This document shows, piece after piece, positions 1,668 to 12,562 of a DNA stretch of 64,000 nucleotides (its first letter is position 1; the number at the start of each line of letters is the position of its first letter). The DNA comes from Candidatus Woesearchaeota archaeon. GTDB taxonomy: Archaea; Nanobdellota; Nanobdellia; SCGC-AAA011-G17; GW2011-AR17. Below the pieces are notes generated by a model that was not told where the DNA came from, did no database searches, and saw nothing but the letters and a program-made list of their open reading frames with translations. The stretch covers positions 29,953 through 93,952 of the forward strand of contig CAYPLB010000003.1 of NCBI GenBank assembly GCA_964411565.1, read 5' to 3'. The position numbers and the translations under genes were made by a program.

Positions 1668-1793
1668 CCCTGTCTGGCTCAACGGTAGAGCACTCGGCTG
1701 TAGATCAATTCGCCCTTTGACAGTGCAAATGCATAGGATGAAAAAGGGAGAGCCGTACCCGAGCGGTTCCTGGTTCAAATCCGGGGGCAGGGA
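1668..1793 (+). tRNA. tRNA-Tyr (anticodon GTA) with 54-nt intron at canonical 37/38 position
   Basis: Acceptor CCCTGTC/GGCAGGG, D-arm GCTC-AACGGTA-GAGC, anticodon stem CTCGG/CCGAG with loop CTGTAG|C, T-arm CCTGG-TTCAAAT-CCGGG, discriminator A, no encoded CCA. Intron 1704-1757 interrupts after position 37. Confidence 0.7.
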
Positions 1794-1800
1794 TTTTTAT

Positions 1801-2139
1801 TTATAACATTTTCAAATTGCCAGTTAAAGAATCAATTTTTTCTTCGTCATCTGGACCAATACCTAAACAAGTAATAGTTGGTCTTTTGAAAAAAGTTTTT
1901 CCTGCATCTTTAATTAAACCAGTTGTAAAACCAGAAGACTTTGCATTAATAAGAAATTGCTTTAGTTCTTTTAAATCTTTAACTTTTAAAACAACTTTCT
2001 TCATTCCTTCATGTTTCCACTCATGAATTTTTGTTTTTGAAGAATTTAATGTTGCTTCAACAGAAGCATGTGCAACCTGAACAGACAATTTTCCCTTGTC
2101 CATTTTTAAATCTTGTCTGACTAAAATTACTTGTTTCAT
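1801..2139 (-). CDS. pth2: peptidyl-tRNA hydrolase, archaeal/eukaryotic type (Pth2)
   Basis: MKQVILVRQDLKMDKGKLSVQVAHASVEA...KRPTITCLGIGPDDEEKID matches the Pth2 family over its whole length. Start taken at the internal Met (aa 22 of the listed ORF). Confidence 0.85.
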   Translation of the reverse strand: MKQVILVRQDLKMDKGKLSVQVAHASVEATLNSSKTKIHEWKHEGMKKVVLKVKDLKELKQFLINAKSSGFTTGLIKDAGKTFFKRPTITCLGIGPDDEEKIDSLTGNLKML

Positions 2140-2239
2140 TACCTTAAGGAAGAATTTTAGATATTTAAACTTATCCAAAAGACTTATATTATATATAATC
2201 AATGATATATTTAATTTAAAGAAGGAGGAATGAAAAAAT

Positions 2240-4000
2240 ATGAAAAAAATATTAGTTATTTCTATGTTTTTAATTTTATTAACAGCAACAGGCGCAAGTG
2301 CAAGTGTATGGGATTCATTAGCAGATGGATTTGAATTTATGACAGGAGCTTCTATAGGAATTATGGAAGGAGAAGAAGATAATACAGGTGGAGAAGAACC
2401 TGCTTCGGAGCCAGAGCCATAACCTGAGCCGGAACCAGAGCCAGAACCAGAGCCAGAACCAGAACCAACTGATGATGGTGGAGATGATGGAAGTCAACCT
2501 GTTGATACTGGAAATGATGGAAGTCAGCCTGTAGATACTGGAGATGATGGAAGTCAGCCTGTAGATGATGGTGGAGATGATTACCAAGATGATGACCAAT
2601 ATCAAGATGATGATGGAGATGACTACCAAGATGATTACCCTTCATATAATTGTGGTGATGGAATTTGTGAACCTGGAGAATATGATTGTCATGATGATTG
2701 TGGTGGTGTAGATTATAATGATCAAGGACCTGGAGATGATGGTCAATACTATCCAGAACAACCTACAGGATATTGTGGTGATGGAATTTGTCAAGAAGCT
2801 GAGAAAAAACCATACCCAGATGGATGTCATGATGATTGTGATCCTAATAGAGGAAGACCAAGAAGAGAAGCTGGACAACCTGTTAGAGGACCAAGTTATG
2901 CACCTGATGTATTTACTGAAGACCTATTAGAAAGATATGGAGAAAATTGGTGTGAAGCTTTAGGAATGGAAGCAGATGTACATCCAGGGATGAGTGGACC
3001 AGTTGTTGAATGTGTTCCTTATGGTCAAGCTAGAAATGGAATGATTGAGAGAGAAATTGATGTTACAAAAGCTTTATCATTAGTTCTAAAATTAGAAGAG
3101 ATTTCTATAAAAATTAGTGAAGATGGACCATTACATAATAAAATTTCAAATCTATATAATTTCTACAAAGATAATGGTGCAGAAGAAGATGCAGAAAGAT
3201 TTGCAAATGCTTTAGAATATATGAGTGAAGGTAAAGTAGCAATTGATACTCTAAAGGAAAATATGAAGACAACAATTGAAAATGAAGGTAAACTAACTGT
3301 TGAATCACTTTATTCCTTTAAGTCAATGTCTAGAGAAATTATTGATGGAGTTTTCAATAAAATAACTTATGCAATGCTTGGAGTAGATGTAGCTGCTTTA
3401 GAAGTTGAAGTTCTTTCTGAAGATTGTGGATATGACCATCTTTGTTTTGAAGAGAAGTTCCATAACTGTGCAGTTGGTTCAAGTTTTAGTCCAGATGAGT
3501 TTATTACATTGTCTATTGTTGAGTTAAATGATGCAGGACAGTGTACAATTGATCTAAGCTTTGATACAGGTGAACAAGTTTCTTGTCTATTTGAAACTAC
3601 AGACTATAAGTATAGACCTTTAGCTGAAGAGTCATTTAAAGAAGTTTGTGGTGAAGAACTTAGAACTGTATTAGAAGAGATGGAGTCAAGATATGGTCCA
3701 GGAGAAGGAGAAGGTCCTGATGGTCCAGAGTACCATAGTGAATGTGGTGATGGAGTTTGTGATGATGATGAAATTGGATACTGTTTTGATGACTGTGATG
3801 AAGGAAGTGGATACGATGACTATTATGAATATGAAGATGAATATAGTGATGATGATAGTCAAGATGTAGATGAAACAACTGAAGAAGCTGTAGAGGAAAC
3901 TACAGAAGAAGAACCAGCTGAAGAAGAAACTGTAGAAGAAACTGTAGAAGAAACAACTGAGGAAGAAACTGTAGAGGAAACAACTGAGGAGGTGGTATAA
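2240..4000 (+). CDS. secreted highly acidic low-complexity protein with repeated Cys motif; reading frame interrupted by one in-frame TAA (2420-2422): possible pseudogene, sequencing error or readthrough
   Basis: Signal peptide MKKILVISMFLILLTATGASA. An EP dipeptide repeat runs straight through the TAA (..EPEP*PEPEPEP..) and the same frame stays open to 4000. Three copies of CGDG(I/V)C...C.DDC; SQPVDTGDDG x3; C-terminal EETVEETTEE repeats. Confidence 0.55.
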
Positions 4001-4001
4001 A

Positions 4002-4193
4002 ATGATGAAAAAAGTTTTGGCAATATTTTGTATCCTATGTCTGTTATTTTTATTAACTGGATGTAGTGAAACAAGTATTGGATCTGATGATGAAGCTGTA
4101 GAAGAAATAGGTGATATTAATGAAGAGATTGCAGAAATTACAGAAGATCTAAATGAAATCAATGAAGAATTAGGCTCTGAAGAAGAAGTCTAA
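4002..4193 (+). CDS. small acidic putative lipoprotein
   Basis: Signal peptide with lipobox-like LLTGC; remainder is Glu/Asp-rich. Start abuts the stop of the preceding gene. Confidence 0.45.
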   Translation: MMKKVLAIFCILCLLFLLTGCSETSIGSDDEAVEEIGDINEEIAEITEDLNEINEELGSEEEV

Positions 4194-4209
4194 AATATTT
4201 TTTCTTTTT

Positions 4210-5316
4210 TTATTTTAAATGAAATTCTACGATATCATCATCTTCTAAACTATATTCAAGACCTACTTTTTGGCCATCATGTTTAGCACCTTTACCCCAA
4301 ACTCTAGCATAACGAAATTTGTTATAGAAATCTTTGTGAATAGTAATAGCTAATTTTTTAATATTATCACCTTTGTGTAAAGCTACTGGTGGCCAATCTT
4401 TATCTTTACCAGGAGTTTTTGTAAAAACTTTTATTAAACCCAAAGCATCAAATATTTGTTTTTTTAATTCTTCAATACCTATTCCAGTTTTTGCTGATAT
4501 ACCTTTTCCTTTAATATCTGATTTGTTGTGAATAATAAGTAAAGGTAAGAAAACTAAAGCTTCGTTCAAAACATCAGCAAGGTCTTCAATAGTAACTTTT
4601 TCATAAGCTGTAATAATAGCATTGTGATATCCGTGAGACTGTAACATCTTTGTTGCTTGTCTTACGGGAAAATTAAAATATTTTTTACCTAGAAATTCTA
4701 TACCACCTTGACCTTGTTTTTTTATTATTACTTTTGGCTTTTCAGCATTAAGTCTTATTTGAGCTTTTTCAAATTCATTATATAATAAGTCTAATTGCTC
4801 TTTTTCATCTTGAGTGTTATCAATAACAAAAATAATTAAATCTGCACTTCTCATTGCACTAAAATATGCAGGACCATCACCTTTGTAAGCAAAATCTTCA
4901 AATATTGCAGGCATTTCAACTATTTGAATACCAACACCTTTGTAATCCATAATTCCAAATTCAGGTTTTACTGTAGTATATTTATATTCAGCAATAGTTG
5001 GTTTTGCATTTGTCAAAACTGTAACTAAAGAAGATTTTCCAGCATTTGTTAAAGAAACTAAAACAACTTGAGCAGCACCTTCTTTTTTTATTGTTAAATG
5101 TTTACCTCTACCCTTTGAGGTCTGTCTAGTTTTTTCAATTTGAGTTCTTAATTTAGAAAGTTTTTGTTTGATTTGTGCTCTAAGATTCTCAGCACCCTTA
5201 TGACTAGGAGCTGTTTTAAGCATTTCTTCTAAGCCTGCAATTTTCTCAGCAATGGTACTAGCTTCATGATATTTTTTTTCAGCTCTAAAATATTCAGGTT
5301 TTGCATTAATTGGCAT
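4210..5316 (-). CDS. Obg/DRG-family GTP-binding protein with C-terminal TGS domain
   Basis: P-loop VVLVSLTNAGKSSL, G-domain motifs, and a C-terminal TGS-like segment (...KVGLEYSLEDDDIVEFHLK). Length 368 aa is typical of archaeal DRG. Confidence 0.8.
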   Translation of the reverse strand: MPINAKPEYFRAEKKYHEASTIAEKIAGLEEMLKTAPSHKGAENLRAQIKQKLSKLRTQIEKTRQTSKGRGKHLTIKKEGAAQVVLVSLTNAGKSSLVTVLTNAKPTIAEYKYTTVKPEFGIMDYKGVGIQIVEMPAIFEDFAYKGDGPAYFSAMRSADLIIFVIDNTQDEKEQLDLLYNEFEKAQIRLNAEKPKVIIKKQGQGGIEFLGKKYFNFPVRQATKMLQSHGYHNAIITAYEKVTIEDLADVLNEALVFLPLLIIHNKSDIKGKGISAKTGIGIEELKKQIFDALGLIKVFTKTPGKDKDWPPVALHKGDNIKKLAITIHKDFYNKFRYARVWGKGAKHDGQKVGLEYSLEDDDIVEFHLK

Positions 5317-10231: not shown

Positions 10232-10337
10232 GGGGTAGTAGTTTAACTTGGCTAGAGCAGTCGGCTCCAACCCGACAGATCGGGGAAACAATCTACATAA
10301 TGGAGAATGTTCCGAAATTCAAATCCCTGCTACCCCA
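10232..10337 (+). tRNA. tRNA-Trp (anticodon CCA) with a putative 32-nt non-canonical intron between positions 53 and 54
   Basis: Acceptor GGGGTAG/CTACCCC, D-arm GTTT-AACTTGGCTA-GAGC (two G-U pairs), anticodon arm GTCGG-CTCCAAC-CCGAC, variable AGAT, T-stem CGGGG/CCCTG, T-loop TTCAAAT, discriminator A. A 32-nt insertion (10286-10317) separates the T-stem 5' strand from the T-loop. The reverse strand also gives an anticodon arm (UGG) but no T-arm. Confidence 0.5.
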
Positions 10338-11004
10338 TTTTTTTAAAAGTTTCATATTTTTTTAACTTTCTTTCATTTTTAGGTTCAATTTGCTCAAAGA
10401 AATTTTTTATACTTGTACTTTTTCTAATTACTACTTGATGAGTATTACCTCTACAGATATAGGAAGAAATACCTAATTTTTTTAATACTTCATGTATGTC
10501 TTTTGCAAATTTATAAGACTTCATTGAATATTTAATCAAAATATAATTATAACCTTTATCTCTTTGTAAAGTTACACACCCATCAGTGTCAAATAAACCT
10601 CTAAGAAATGCAGCAAGATGAGTATTTTTTGAAAGTAAAGAATGAGGTAATCTAAGATTTGTTTTAGGACCTACAGGACATTGAAGATAAATTGAAAGAA
10701 AATTAAAAATCGTTTTTGATCTACCTCTTAAAGTATAACAATTACCAAAAGTTTCATGTTTTAAATTTATTCCAAAAAGATCTTTAAATAAATAATCTAT
10801 TCTTGCCATATATTTAACATCAAATCTGGAATCTCCTGCATATGTAAAACAATAGTCAGATTTTTTAGAATCACACCTTAAACATCCATCTCCATAATGA
10901 ATCCCTAAGAACTCAGAAAGTTTTATGTCCATTTTTTTGGGAAGAATTATTCCTCTAGATAAATCGTTTCTACCTCTTTTTATAATATTAATATCAAAAT
11001 CCAT
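10330..11004 (-). CDS. free-standing LAGLIDADG homing endonuclease
   Basis: Two LAGLIDADG-type motifs (LGIHYGDGC and LRGLFDTDGC) spaced as in double-motif enzymes. The 3' end overlaps the last 8 nt of tRNA-Trp on the opposite strand. Confidence 0.75.
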   Translation of the reverse strand: MDFDINIIKRGRNDLSRGIILPKKMDIKLSEFLGIHYGDGCLRCDSKKSDYCFTYAGDSRFDVKYMARIDYLFKDLFGINLKHETFGNCYTLRGRSKTIFNFLSIYLQCPVGPKTNLRLPHSLLSKNTHLAAFLRGLFDTDGCVTLQRDKGYNYILIKYSMKSYKFAKDIHEVLKKLGISSYICRGNTHQVVIRKSTSIKNFFEQIEPKNERKLKKYETFKKMG

Positions 11005-11088
11005 TAAATATGTTCAAAGAAAAGAGATTAATAATCTTTTACTAGAAAAAACTGAAAATATTTCAAAATTTTTGAAAAGTTTTCAGAA

Positions 11089-11538
11089 TCAAGCAAAAGA
11101 AGAACTTGATTGAGAAACAGATTTTTCTATTTCAATTTTAAAATCAGGTTTTATTTTGTAAACATGATTATGTTTATTATATTCCATTTCATCAACAGCA
11201 TATCCAGTAATAATTGTACTGTCTGTTTTGAAATCATAAATAATAGAAAACTCTACATCTTGTTCTAATAATTCTAAATATTTATTGAATTTTGTTTCAA
11301 ATTCACTTTGAAAATTAGAGGAAGATGCTTCCTTTGCAGCAAGATTTGCTGAGAGTTCAATATAATAAATATCTTTTTCAGCTTCAAAATAAGTGTTAAA
11401 TAATTCAATTTCTTTTTCTCCAAGATATAAATCAGATCCCCCAGGAGAATTTTTCCCAGTATTACCATAAAACATAAAGAGAGCTATAATGAAACCTAAA
11501 CATACAATGTACATGAAAACAGCTGCTCTTTTATTCAT
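11089..11538 (-). CDS. hypothetical N-terminally anchored protein in pilus-like locus
   Basis: MNKRAAVFMYIVCLGFIIALFMF signal-anchor; 4-nt start/stop overlap with the next gene. Confidence 0.4.
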   Translation of the reverse strand: MNKRAAVFMYIVCLGFIIALFMFYGNTGKNSPGGSDLYLGEKEIELFNTYFEAEKDIYYIELSANLAAKEASSSNFQSEFETKFNKYLELLEQDVEFSIIYDFKTDSTIITGYAVDEMEYNKHNHVYKIKPDFKIEIEKSVSQSSSSFA

Positions 11539-12086
11539 TCGTAAACCTCCAAAACAACTTTTAATTTTTTATTACCATCAACTTCAGGAATATTAAGTTC
11601 AGCACTATAAGGATTGTCTATGTCAATTATAATAGGTGTACAAAAGAAAATCATTTTATCTTCTTCATTATATACACTAATATACCAATCTGAAGAAATT
11701 GGATCAAGATAAGTTTCTAAATAAGCTACTAAAACATCATCACAAGATAATCTATCTGAAAATTCAGATTTTAAAAATCCATTAAATAAAAAACCATCTT
11801 GAGGCGAAGGATAATTCCTACCTGTGTAAGACAATATTTCTCCTAATGTATAATCATCATCAATTTGAAGTTTCATTAAATTAATTAAGTCAGTATCTAA
11901 AAATTCTGCGTCCATAGCATTTACTTCATTATTATTTGGAAGAATTGAATCCATTATATTTCCAACACTAAATTTAGAAACAAAATTAAAAGCTATTAAA
12001 ATAACAATAATCACTGCAAGAATAACTAGAGCAGTTCCAAACTCTGTCCAATCATCGAACATTGCAAATCCTTTTTTCTTTAACAT
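11535..12086 (-). CDS. prepilin-like protein with class III signal peptide
   Basis: MLKKKG|FAMFDDWTEFGTALVILAVIIVILIAF: basic N-terminus, [KR]G cleavage motif, hydrophobic helix. Confidence 0.55.
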   Translation of the reverse strand: MLKKKGFAMFDDWTEFGTALVILAVIIVILIAFNFVSKFSVGNIMDSILPNNNEVNAMDAEFLDTDLINLMKLQIDDDYTLGEILSYTGRNYPSPQDGFLFNGFLKSEFSDRLSCDDVLVAYLETYLDPISSDWYISVYNEEDKMIFFCTPIIIDIDNPYSAELNIPEVDGNKKLKVVLEVYE

Positions 12087-12562
12087 TCTATCAACTCAAA
12101 ATTGAATTCTAAAATTGAATTCTTTATTTCTCCATTATCATATACTTGTACTATTTTGTTTATTGTTTGTTTTTCATTGAATTCTTTATCACCAATAGAT
12201 TTCCCATTTAAAGTTAAACCCATTTTTGTATCAATAAATCTTCGCATAACTTCAAATTCTAAATTATCAGGATCTAAATAATTAAAACAGGAACTAATAT
12301 TACCATCATTAAATTTATTTAAGTCAATAGTACCAACAACAGTCCTATCAATGTCTTCATTAAAATAAGCTATACAATCTGAATCTGTTAAAACCTTAGC
12401 TAACATAATTTCATGATAAATAGGATCAACACACTCAGCTTTAATCTTTTGTGTATCAGTAGTAATATTTATGAAAGCAAGAAAAAGAATTGAAACAACT
12501 AAAATACCTACAATAAAATAAATTAATTTTCCTCCAATCATTTGACCTTTATTTGTTTTCAC
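12080..12562 (-). CDS. prepilin-like protein with class III signal peptide
   Basis: MKTNKG|QMIGGKLIYFIVGILVVSILFLAF, a KGQ-type (EppA-like) cleavage motif. Confidence 0.6.
   Translation of the reverse strand: MKTNKGQMIGGKLIYFIVGILVVSILFLAFINITTDTQKIKAECVDPIYHEIMLAKVLTDSDCIAYFNEDIDRTVVGTIDLNKFNDGNISSCFNYLDPDNLEFEVMRRFIDTKMGLTLNGKSIGDKEFNEKQTINKIVQVYDNGEIKNSILEFNFELIEC

Follow-up and report, generated by a model that had tools for sequence, protein, structure and literature searches.

A free-standing homing endonuclease gene of the LAGLIDADG type, which probably has tRNA genes as its targets and carries a replacement segment of the tRNA along, was identified next to a tRNA-Trp(CCA) gene in 64,000 nucleotides of DNA from a Candidatus Woesearchaeota archaeon (assembly GCA_964411565.1, contig CAYPLB010000003.1, positions 29,953 to 93,952 of the forward strand). 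This whole stretch is called the window, and positions are counted from its first letter. Analysis of related loci, which are cited by their L numbers, showed that tRNA adjacency is a property of the endonuclease family and that its subfamilies are dedicated to single tRNA isotypes. The tRNA, its bulge-helix-bulge (BHB) intron, and the LAGLIDADG fold are each of a known kind. The near-obligate, isotype-specific coupling of one LAGLIDADG family to tRNA, its two docking layouts, and the footprints of replacement segments appear to be new. The literature searched yielded no account of a coupling between LAGLIDADG and tRNA genes; most subscription journals were outside the coverage, so an earlier account is possible.

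The endonuclease family and its adjacency to tRNA genes

The original prediction, made from the letters of the window, described a 224-aa open reading frame (ORF) with two LAGLIDADG motifs on the strand opposite to the tRNA, overlapping it by 8 nt. This description was confirmed. The product matched the Pfam family LAGLIDADG_3 at 5.8e-18, and both motifs were located in its translation. Among 20 homologs, residues G38, D39, and G40 of motif 1 and the stretch G136-G142 of motif 2, which includes D141, were invariant, and two conserved lysines were invariant alongside D39 and D141. A family profile matched the endonuclease domain of an archaeal VMA intein (3e-18) and I-DmoI (5e-10, aligned over residues 30-210), and also PI-PfuI and I-Tsp061I, with E-values over the known endonucleases ranging from 3e-18 to 4e-8. 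NCBIfam holds no model of its own for the tRNA-adjoining family. As in single-chain enzymes of the I-DmoI type, the two motifs, each with its catalytic acidic residue, lie in one polypeptide of ~200-250 aa. This two-domain organization is common to I-DmoI, I-Tsp061I, PI-PfuI, and the VMA intein, but those enzymes are embedded in rRNA introns or inteins, whereas the family described here is free-standing at tRNA genes. The arrangement of the intron-encoded I-DmoI and I-PorI was not found either, as the ORF lies outside the tRNA except for the 8-nt overlap with the 3′ strand of the acceptor stem. The ratio of non-synonymous to synonymous divergence (dN/dS), determined against the 85%-identical L090 ortholog, was 0.167 at dS 0.47, which is between the values of the housekeeping neighbours (0.045 and 0.088) and those of the fast-evolving neighbours (0.33 and 0.46). 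We conclude that the 224-aa ORF encodes an intact LAGLIDADG endonuclease of the single-chain form and that purifying selection acts on it; DNA cleavage by the protein is predicted.

Relatives of the protein were collected in a scan with one genome per species. It yielded 481 relatives, and the best 80 were analysed as species-level loci. Their hosts are mostly Woesearchaeota, Nanoarchaeota, Pacearchaeota, Aenigmatarchaeota, and Iainarchaeota, with a few bacteria of the candidate phyla radiation (CPR). The search for tRNAs was carried out on 90 loci, including these 80. Seven spliced tRNA-Trp sequences were used to build a covariance model, which detected a tRNA at the ORF 3′ end in 78 of the 90 loci, and Rfam together with reading of the flanks added nine loci with an adjoining tRNA, several of which bear three or four introns. 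At the species level, a tRNA abuts or overlaps the 3′ end of the endonuclease gene in 77 of the 80 loci, while about two or three would be expected by chance. A tRNA likewise adjoined the ORF in each homolog context that was fetched individually. Two layouts were observed. Either the ORF converges on the 3′ end of the tRNA, as in the window, or the two genes are co-directional and the ORF runs into the 5′ end of the tRNA. The endonuclease ORF meets the tRNA with its own 3′ end in each layout. The adjoining tRNA genes occur with and without introns, many of them carry two to four, and an ORF within a tRNA intron was found in none of the 90 loci.

In a neighbour-joining tree of 86 proteins, the clades matched the tRNA isotype (Trp, Gly, Arg, His, Phe, Met, and a CPR class-II group). 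In the Trp clade, proteins from co-directional loci were nested among those from convergent loci. Three assemblies, being metagenome-assembled or single-amplified genomes (MAG/SAG), contained two loci each, and both copies of each pair adjoin different tRNAs.

Some members of the family have unusual surroundings. In L033, the LAGLIDADG gene (3740-4639) is located between complete tRNA-Gly genes at 3553-3624 and 4621-4692, with CCC and GCC anticodons, and both flanks hold whole tRNA genes, unlike the combination of a tRNA and a remnant described below. In the His clade, an ORF directly follows the endonuclease gene and tRNA-His in L085, and the endonuclease gene alone in L071; its N-terminus (..VKGFRD..P..), judged by eye only, is histidyl-tRNA synthetase-like. 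Also within the His clade, the co-directional ORFs of L029, L037, L072, L079, and further loci meet no stop codon ahead of tRNA-His and continue for 95-130 nt through the entire tRNA gene. If RNase P cut at the 5′ end of this tRNA, the mRNA would lose its stop codon.

The tRNA-Trp gene and its intron at position 53/54

The window has a base composition of ~28% G+C, and its closest relatives in the scan were MAGs of DPANN archaea. Rfam model RF00005 matched 10232-10337(+) with 37.7 bits at a gathering score of 29, and 39 nt occupied the place of the 7-nt T-loop in this alignment. A tRNA-Trp-specific covariance model gave 70.8 bits (E=4e-15). After removal of 10286-10317, the sequence formed a 74-nt cloverleaf with stems of 7, 4, 5, and 5 bp, U33, the anticodon CCA, and the T-loop UUCAAAU. 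Removal of the same segment was the single solution returned by a script that searches jointly for a BHB intron and a cloverleaf. The position and anatomy that had been proposed for the tRNA were therefore reproduced. A caution had been attached to that proposal, namely that the reverse strand offers an alternative anticodon arm. It was settled in favour of the + strand, as both covariance models score this strand only, and the two G-U pairs of the D-stem become A-C mismatches when read on the opposite strand. The acceptor pair G4-C69 is replaced by A-U in the relatives L001, L010, and L090, which is a compensatory change. As judged from its sequence, 10232-10337(+) was shown to be a functional tRNA-Trp(CCA) gene. 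ARAGORN called no tRNA in the whole window, tRNA-Trp included, so the gene would escape routine annotation.

The TATA-like box upstream of the gene is likely the tRNA-Trp promoter. The 40 nt around it are nearly identical in L090, despite a synonymous divergence of ~0.5 between the two lineages. The seven-T run that abuts the tRNA is likely to act as an archaeal terminator. A scan for sigma-70 promoters and terminators is not meaningful for an archaeon.

The splice sites of the window intron are set by the cloverleaf alone, independently of the BHB geometry, and a strict BHB motif was present at exactly these junctions. Its outer helix h consists of GA (10278-79) paired with UC (10319-20), the central helix H of UCGG (10280-83) paired with CCGA (10312-15), 4 bp, and the inner helix h′ of AACA (10287-90) paired with UGUU (10308-11), also 4 bp. 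The two 3-nt bulges, GG|A and AA|U, are separated by the 4-bp helix and the splice sites are symmetric, as in the definition of the hBHBh′ motif. In the precursor, the 5′ strand of the T-stem pairs with the 3′ end of the intron and so builds the motif. The unconstrained minimum-free-energy fold of the precursor contained neither the cloverleaf nor the BHB; an alternative hairpin competes, and this fold is hence uninformative.

The BHB cores of 13 independent tRNA introns, all at position 53/54, were aligned for a covariation analysis. Pairing was found in 95.4% of cells, compared with 60% in shuffled alignments, and none of 500 shuffles reached the observed value. When the partner strand was slid by one to three columns, pairing fell to 44% or less. 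Two-sided changes were detected in eight of the ten pairs, i.e., in all eight pairs of H and h′, so that compensatory change among relatives is documented for this motif. Introns at 53/54 in tRNA-Trp, Met, Gly, His, and Arg of related loci have one geometry and differing sequences. The intron is kept in the close relatives L001, L002, L010, L090, and L091, where the differences between introns are confined to the terminal loop. The 32-nt intron has no coding capacity. It had been proposed that the tRNA folds only if this insertion is removed, and the results indicate that 10286-10317 is a genuine BHB intron, its splicing being predicted. The lack of a plausible BHB at the junctions, which had been named as evidence that would overturn this proposal, is clearly not the case.

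The position had also been described as unusual. It is uncommon, which stands, but it is not new as an intron position, because 53/54 is already among the listed non-canonical archaeal tRNA intron positions (PMC4090602). Non-canonical BHB introns of tRNAs are known from Thermoproteales, Nanoarchaeota, and ARMAN (reviewed in PMC4090602). The introns described here resemble them in the hBHBh′ junctions, in their location outside the anticodon loop, in their short length, and in the presence of several introns in related tRNAs. They differ in that the host of the window intron is a marine DPANN lineage of the Woesearchaeota/Nanoarchaeota type, in that a homing endonuclease gene adjoins the tRNA, in the GG|A and AA|U bulges common to the 53/54 introns of Trp, Met, Gly, His, and Arg tRNAs, and in a GGGAA-like loop found in several of the 53/54 introns.

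This loop was seen as a GGGAA or GGAGAA-like motif in the terminal loops of the 53/54 introns of the window, L014, L023, L030, L081, and L089. It spans tRNA-Trp, tRNA-Met, and different species, and the bulges are nearly always GG|A and AA|U. The common loop and bulges suggest one intron family that may have moved among tRNA genes.

For many tRNAs with three or four introns, the multi-intron solver failed, as the 37/38 introns break the strict BHB rule, and the intron maps of these tRNAs come from targeted searches and reading of the sequence. The 37/38 introns of tRNA-Trp in L004, L005, L014, L017, L018, L023, and L030 have the elements UGGAGCGAUGAGC ... GCGAUGA ... CUGA-like in common. In these elements, the long introns resemble the box C/D guide RNA that the tRNA-Trp intron carries in Euryarchaeota. 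A search of the introns in Rfam gave no family.

Insertion footprints, rival explanations, and a possible link with the intron

In the window, a gene for a phosphorylase of the PNP family and several small hypothetical genes in a row accompany the tRNA-Trp locus. The same neighbours recur in relatives, and the PNP gene is 70-77% identical across the syntenic loci. The same arrangement as in the window was present in five independent assemblies (L001, L002, L010, L090, and L091). Across the wider set of syntenic loci, the endonuclease gene was found in three states: convergent at the 3′ end of the tRNA (window), co-directional at its 5′ end (L006-L009), and absent (L093/L094). The gene located 5′ of tRNA-Trp in L006-L009 is 37% identical to that of the window. 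In L006, the tRNA 3′ end lies 4 nt from the stop codon of the next gene, where the window has ~750 nt extra. The tRNA-Trp of L093/L094 has a window-like anticodon arm and T-stem, an intron in the D-loop, and no T-arm intron. The comparison of orthologous tRNA-Trp loci, which had been recommended as a check, gave an intron kept in close relatives and an endonuclease gene that is located at either end of the tRNA or absent depending on the locus. Presence and absence at a homologous site, together with footprints of insertion, are what marks a homing gene; the former were found across the syntenic relatives and the latter in several loci of the family.

The footprints are remnant tRNA ends, which flank the endonuclease gene in at least nine loci. 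Exact 14-16-nt copies of tRNA positions ~58-73 are located beyond the endonuclease start in L014 and L023, and a 25-nt copy of the T-arm and acceptor in L089. Directly 5′ of the endonuclease start codon, copies of tRNA positions 1 to ~26 occur in L040, L061, L053, L059, L055, and L068. In a remnant test, 8 of the 80 loci reached an empirical p<=0.006 (binomial 3e-8). Such remnants beyond the endonuclease gene indicate insertion of the gene together with a replacement tRNA segment. The simplest reading of these sequences is that the endonuclease gene and the replacement segment form a mobile unit that would be put into a tRNA gene. Where the remnant stands directly before the start codon in the co-directional layout, it suggests that the endonuclease gene is transcribed from the original tRNA promoter. 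Integrase-mediated integration was considered as the origin of the tRNA-end repeats and rejected, as the inserts are single LAGLIDADG genes with no recombinase.

According to the mechanism we propose, the endonuclease would cut those tRNA gene copies from which its own gene is absent. In the convergent Trp/Met type, cutting would probably occur in the T-arm region. Repair templated by the endonuclease-bearing copy would bring in the gene and the replacement tRNA segment. The tRNA would remain whole, and the displaced original end would persist as a decaying remnant. In the transcript, EndA would cut both bulges and an RtcB-type ligation would restore the T-loop, as in established archaeal tRNA splicing.

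Free-standing mitochondrial homing endonuclease genes, such as those at fungal atp6, enter the 3′ end of the host gene with a replacement copy. The loci analysed here are similar in that the endonuclease gene carries a duplicate of the displaced segment, the host gene is intact, and a remnant is left. The atp6 case concerns a protein gene of an organelle, whereas here a tRNA gene on archaeal and CPR chromosomes is entered at either its 5′ or its 3′ end. Archaeal virus and plasmid integrases, as well as retrotransposons of eukaryotes, also target tRNA genes (PMC5006619). The tRNA gene as a conserved, safe landing site and the partial tRNA duplications that flank the insert are shared with these systems. 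The difference is that no integrase or reverse transcriptase is present, and a lone LAGLIDADG gene, 0.7-1.1 kb long, makes up the insert.

Several observations weigh against insertion of a mobile endonuclease gene as the explanation of the locus. No tRNA 3′-end remnant was found beyond the endonuclease gene in the window, and no endonuclease-free allele was found within its own species-level lineage. A metagenome scan with a 24-nt pattern from the tRNA-Trp anticodon arm returned two contigs of the window lineage, both with the endonuclease gene and the intron. The protein tree is a simple neighbour-joining tree without support values. Purifying selection and stability over dS ~0.5 are equally explained by a role that is beneficial to the host.

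This last point leads to the strongest rival, which we nevertheless consider unlikely. It states that a domesticated LAGLIDADG protein performs a cellular job tied to the adjoining tRNA, as a WhiA-like gene-specific DNA-binding regulator or as a helper in the folding or splicing of an intron-rich precursor, and is inherited vertically beside its client. The dN/dS of 0.167, the single-isotype clades, the near-universal adjacency, and the two to four introns in many neighbouring tRNAs agree with such a role. Proteins of the WhiA type, however, have lost their catalytic aspartates, and both are invariant in the 20 homologs. Vertical inheritance beside a client is also difficult to reconcile with differences among syntenic relatives in whether the gene occurs and on which side of the tRNA it lies, with the displaced tRNA remnants, with the three MAG/SAG assemblies that have two copies beside different tRNAs, and with a family that spans archaea and CPR bacteria. 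Moreover, an unrelated gene for an Mrr-like nuclease holds the same position in L097 and L098.

The original prediction offered the locus as a possible relic of, or intermediate in, intron and endonuclease mobility. The link with mobility held, and no indication was found of a relic of an intron-encoded gene. Such a relic would have been an ORF once inside the BHB intron of the tRNA that moved outside and left the 32-nt mini-intron behind. The homology of the protein to I-DmoI, an enzyme whose gene lies in an rRNA intron of archaea, and the distance of no more than 20 nt between the gene and an ORF-less intron speak for it. We find it highly improbable, as the ORF has its place outside the tRNA and runs on the other strand, its relatives occur on either side of the tRNA and adjoin intron-free tRNAs (L012, L022, and most of the Arg and His clades), and not one of the 90 loci has an ORF inside a tRNA intron. 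The flanking tRNA-end remnants, in addition, indicate insertion with a duplicated tRNA segment and not expulsion from an intron.

Chance adjacency, an assembly artefact, or a pseudogene tRNA with a junk insertion, to which the silence of ARAGORN and a minimum-free-energy precursor fold that shows the BHB only when constrained might point, is effectively refuted by the agreement of the five independent assemblies (L001, L002, L010, L090, and L091), the tRNA adjacency in 77 of 80 species, the covarying BHB, the compensatory change in the acceptor stem, and a promoter region and exons conserved at dS ~0.5.

We then considered the relation between the inserted endonuclease gene and the 53/54 intron. 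Collaborative homing is known from the cyanophage S-PM2, in which the free-standing F-CphI gene is located beside the intron-containing psbA; the intron blocks self-cleavage and the endonuclease confers mobility on the intron (PMC6083498). In phage T4, mobE is paired with the nrdB intron (PMC2790892). The layout of the window is the same, as a free-standing endonuclease gene adjoins a gene with an ORF-less intron. The phage cases involve group I introns, protein-coding genes, and Endo VII or HNH enzymes, whereas the window has a protein-spliced BHB intron, a cellular tRNA gene, and a LAGLIDADG enzyme, with cleavage and protection predicted. Two loci fit the logic of collaborative homing. In L089, a 53/54 intron is present in the functional copy and absent from the displaced remnant. 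The L093 allele, whose anticodon arm and T-arm are nearly identical to those of the window, has neither an endonuclease gene nor a T-arm intron. Introns at 45/46, 53/54, or 59/60 were present in 13 of 17 convergent tRNA-Trp lineages, compared with 2 of 8 other tRNA-Trp loci. The remnant junctions (~48/49 and ~57/58) and these intron positions all lie within ~20 bp, which is the size of a LAGLIDADG recognition site.

A speculative step can be added to the mechanism on this basis, in which the 53/54 intron, lying within the presumed recognition site, would shield the host copy from its own endonuclease. That the intron protects the host copy in this way and travels with the endonuclease gene as a linked pair, i.e., by collaborative homing, is a tentative reading that we hold at somewhat less than even confidence. 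Its extension to DPANN tRNAs in general, in which the 45/46, 53/54, and 59/60 introns would have been kept and spread by splitting the sites of tRNA-targeting LAGLIDADG enzymes, with intron and gene co-mobile, is doubtful. The enrichment of introns rests on small counts and is not corrected for phylogeny. Four convergent tRNA-Trp loci (L003, L012, L016, and L022) are free of introns in the tRNA's 3′ third. Introns at 53/54 are found in L017, L024, and L068, whose endonuclease genes adjoin the 5′ end of the tRNA, and in a second tRNA of L025, which no endonuclease gene adjoins. All of these observations count against the protection step.

Two further observations concern the docking site and possible losses from it. 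L097 was examined as a nuclease-free allele and rejected, as a different, Mrr-like, nuclease gene sits against the tRNA 5′ end. In L097 at 2135-2860(-), in L098 at 2108-2884(-), and in the P0037 contig, a gene of 241-258 aa abuts the 5′ end of tRNA-Trp co-directionally. Its product has weak matches to Mrr_cat (PD-(D/E)XK nuclease) and to a winged helix and does not resemble the LAGLIDADG protein. A second nuclease family appears to use the tRNA-Trp docking site at the syntenic locus. In L025, a tRNA-Arg(CCT) gene at 5066-5196(+) contains 37/38 and 53/54 introns and has no adjoining LAGLIDADG gene. A near-copy of its 3′ end with a T-run (GAATCTCACCGGGTCCGTTTTTTG) is located ~130 nt downstream and could be the scar of a lost insertion.

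Features of the window and significance of the locus

The features of the tRNA-Trp locus are listed in Table 1. The AT-rich spacer beyond the endonuclease gene presumably holds the endonuclease promoter and belongs to the inserted segment.

Table 1. Coordinates of the features of the tRNA-Trp and LAGLIDADG gene locus in the window.
Feature	Position	Strand	Remarks
TATA-like box TTATAAA	10199..10205	+	~30 nt 5′ of the tRNA; read from sequence
tRNA-Trp exon 1	10232..10285	+	acceptor 5′ strand, D-arm, CCA arm, variable loop AGAU, CGGGG T-stem
BHB intron, 32 nt, position 53/54	10286..10317	+	strict hBHBh′ motif
tRNA-Trp exon 2	10318..10337	+	T-loop UUCAAAU, CCCUG T-stem, CUACCCC acceptor, discriminator A
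Seven-T run	10338..10344	+	abuts the tRNA; within the final codons of the opposite-strand ORF
Free-standing LAGLIDADG gene, 224 aa	10330..11004	-	convergent with the tRNA; covers the last 8 nt of the tRNA
LAGLIDADG motif 2 AAFLRGLFDTDG	10579..10614	-	residues 131-142, catalytic Asp141; from the translation
LAGLIDADG motif 1 LSEFLGIHYGDG	10885..10920	-	residues 29-40, catalytic Asp39; from the translation
AT-rich spacer, 84 nt	11005..11088	.	from the endonuclease start codon to the stop of the next host gene

Small, fast-evolving hypothetical genes (149, 183, 160 aa, and more), with no Pfam matches, are located at 11089-12562(-) of the window. A run of such genes follows the tRNA locus in L006, L008, L093, L097, and L098 too. 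The 183-aa protein showed 34% identity between the window and L006, the single pair compared, and its N-terminal region looks hydrophobic.

A second tRNA was detected in the window at 1668-1793(+), with 47.8 bits in Rfam and an anticodon loop that is ~54-57 nt too long. The pair C1-G72 and the anticodon GUA suggest tRNA-Tyr. With the intron option, ARAGORN called it Asn(GTT), which was rejected as being at odds with the C1-G72 pair. No strict BHB yields a clean 7-nt anticodon loop for this tRNA; a CGGCU/AGCCG helix between GUA and UAC suggests a relaxed or shifted motif.

The reason for introns at odd positions in archaeal tRNA genes is an old question, and one proposal is that they give protection from mobile elements. 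The idea that disrupted tRNA genes resist such elements is that of Randau and Soll, as it is cited in PMC4033280. Here, a nuclease family is tied physically and phylogenetically to single tRNA genes in genomes that are rich in such introns, and the protection proposal therefore becomes testable. The loci also show a route by which a homing endonuclease may enter an essential RNA gene with no intron or intein of its own, that is, with a replacement piece. As standard tRNA finders miss such genes, the tRNA sets of DPANN archaea are likely under-called. The clades that are specific for an isotype would offer natural meganucleases whose targets are long and conserved. If the introns do split the sites of these endonucleases, the loci would be direct evidence that the disruption of archaeal tRNA genes arose in an arms race and would constitute a large reservoir of natural meganucleases, each specific for a tRNA gene.

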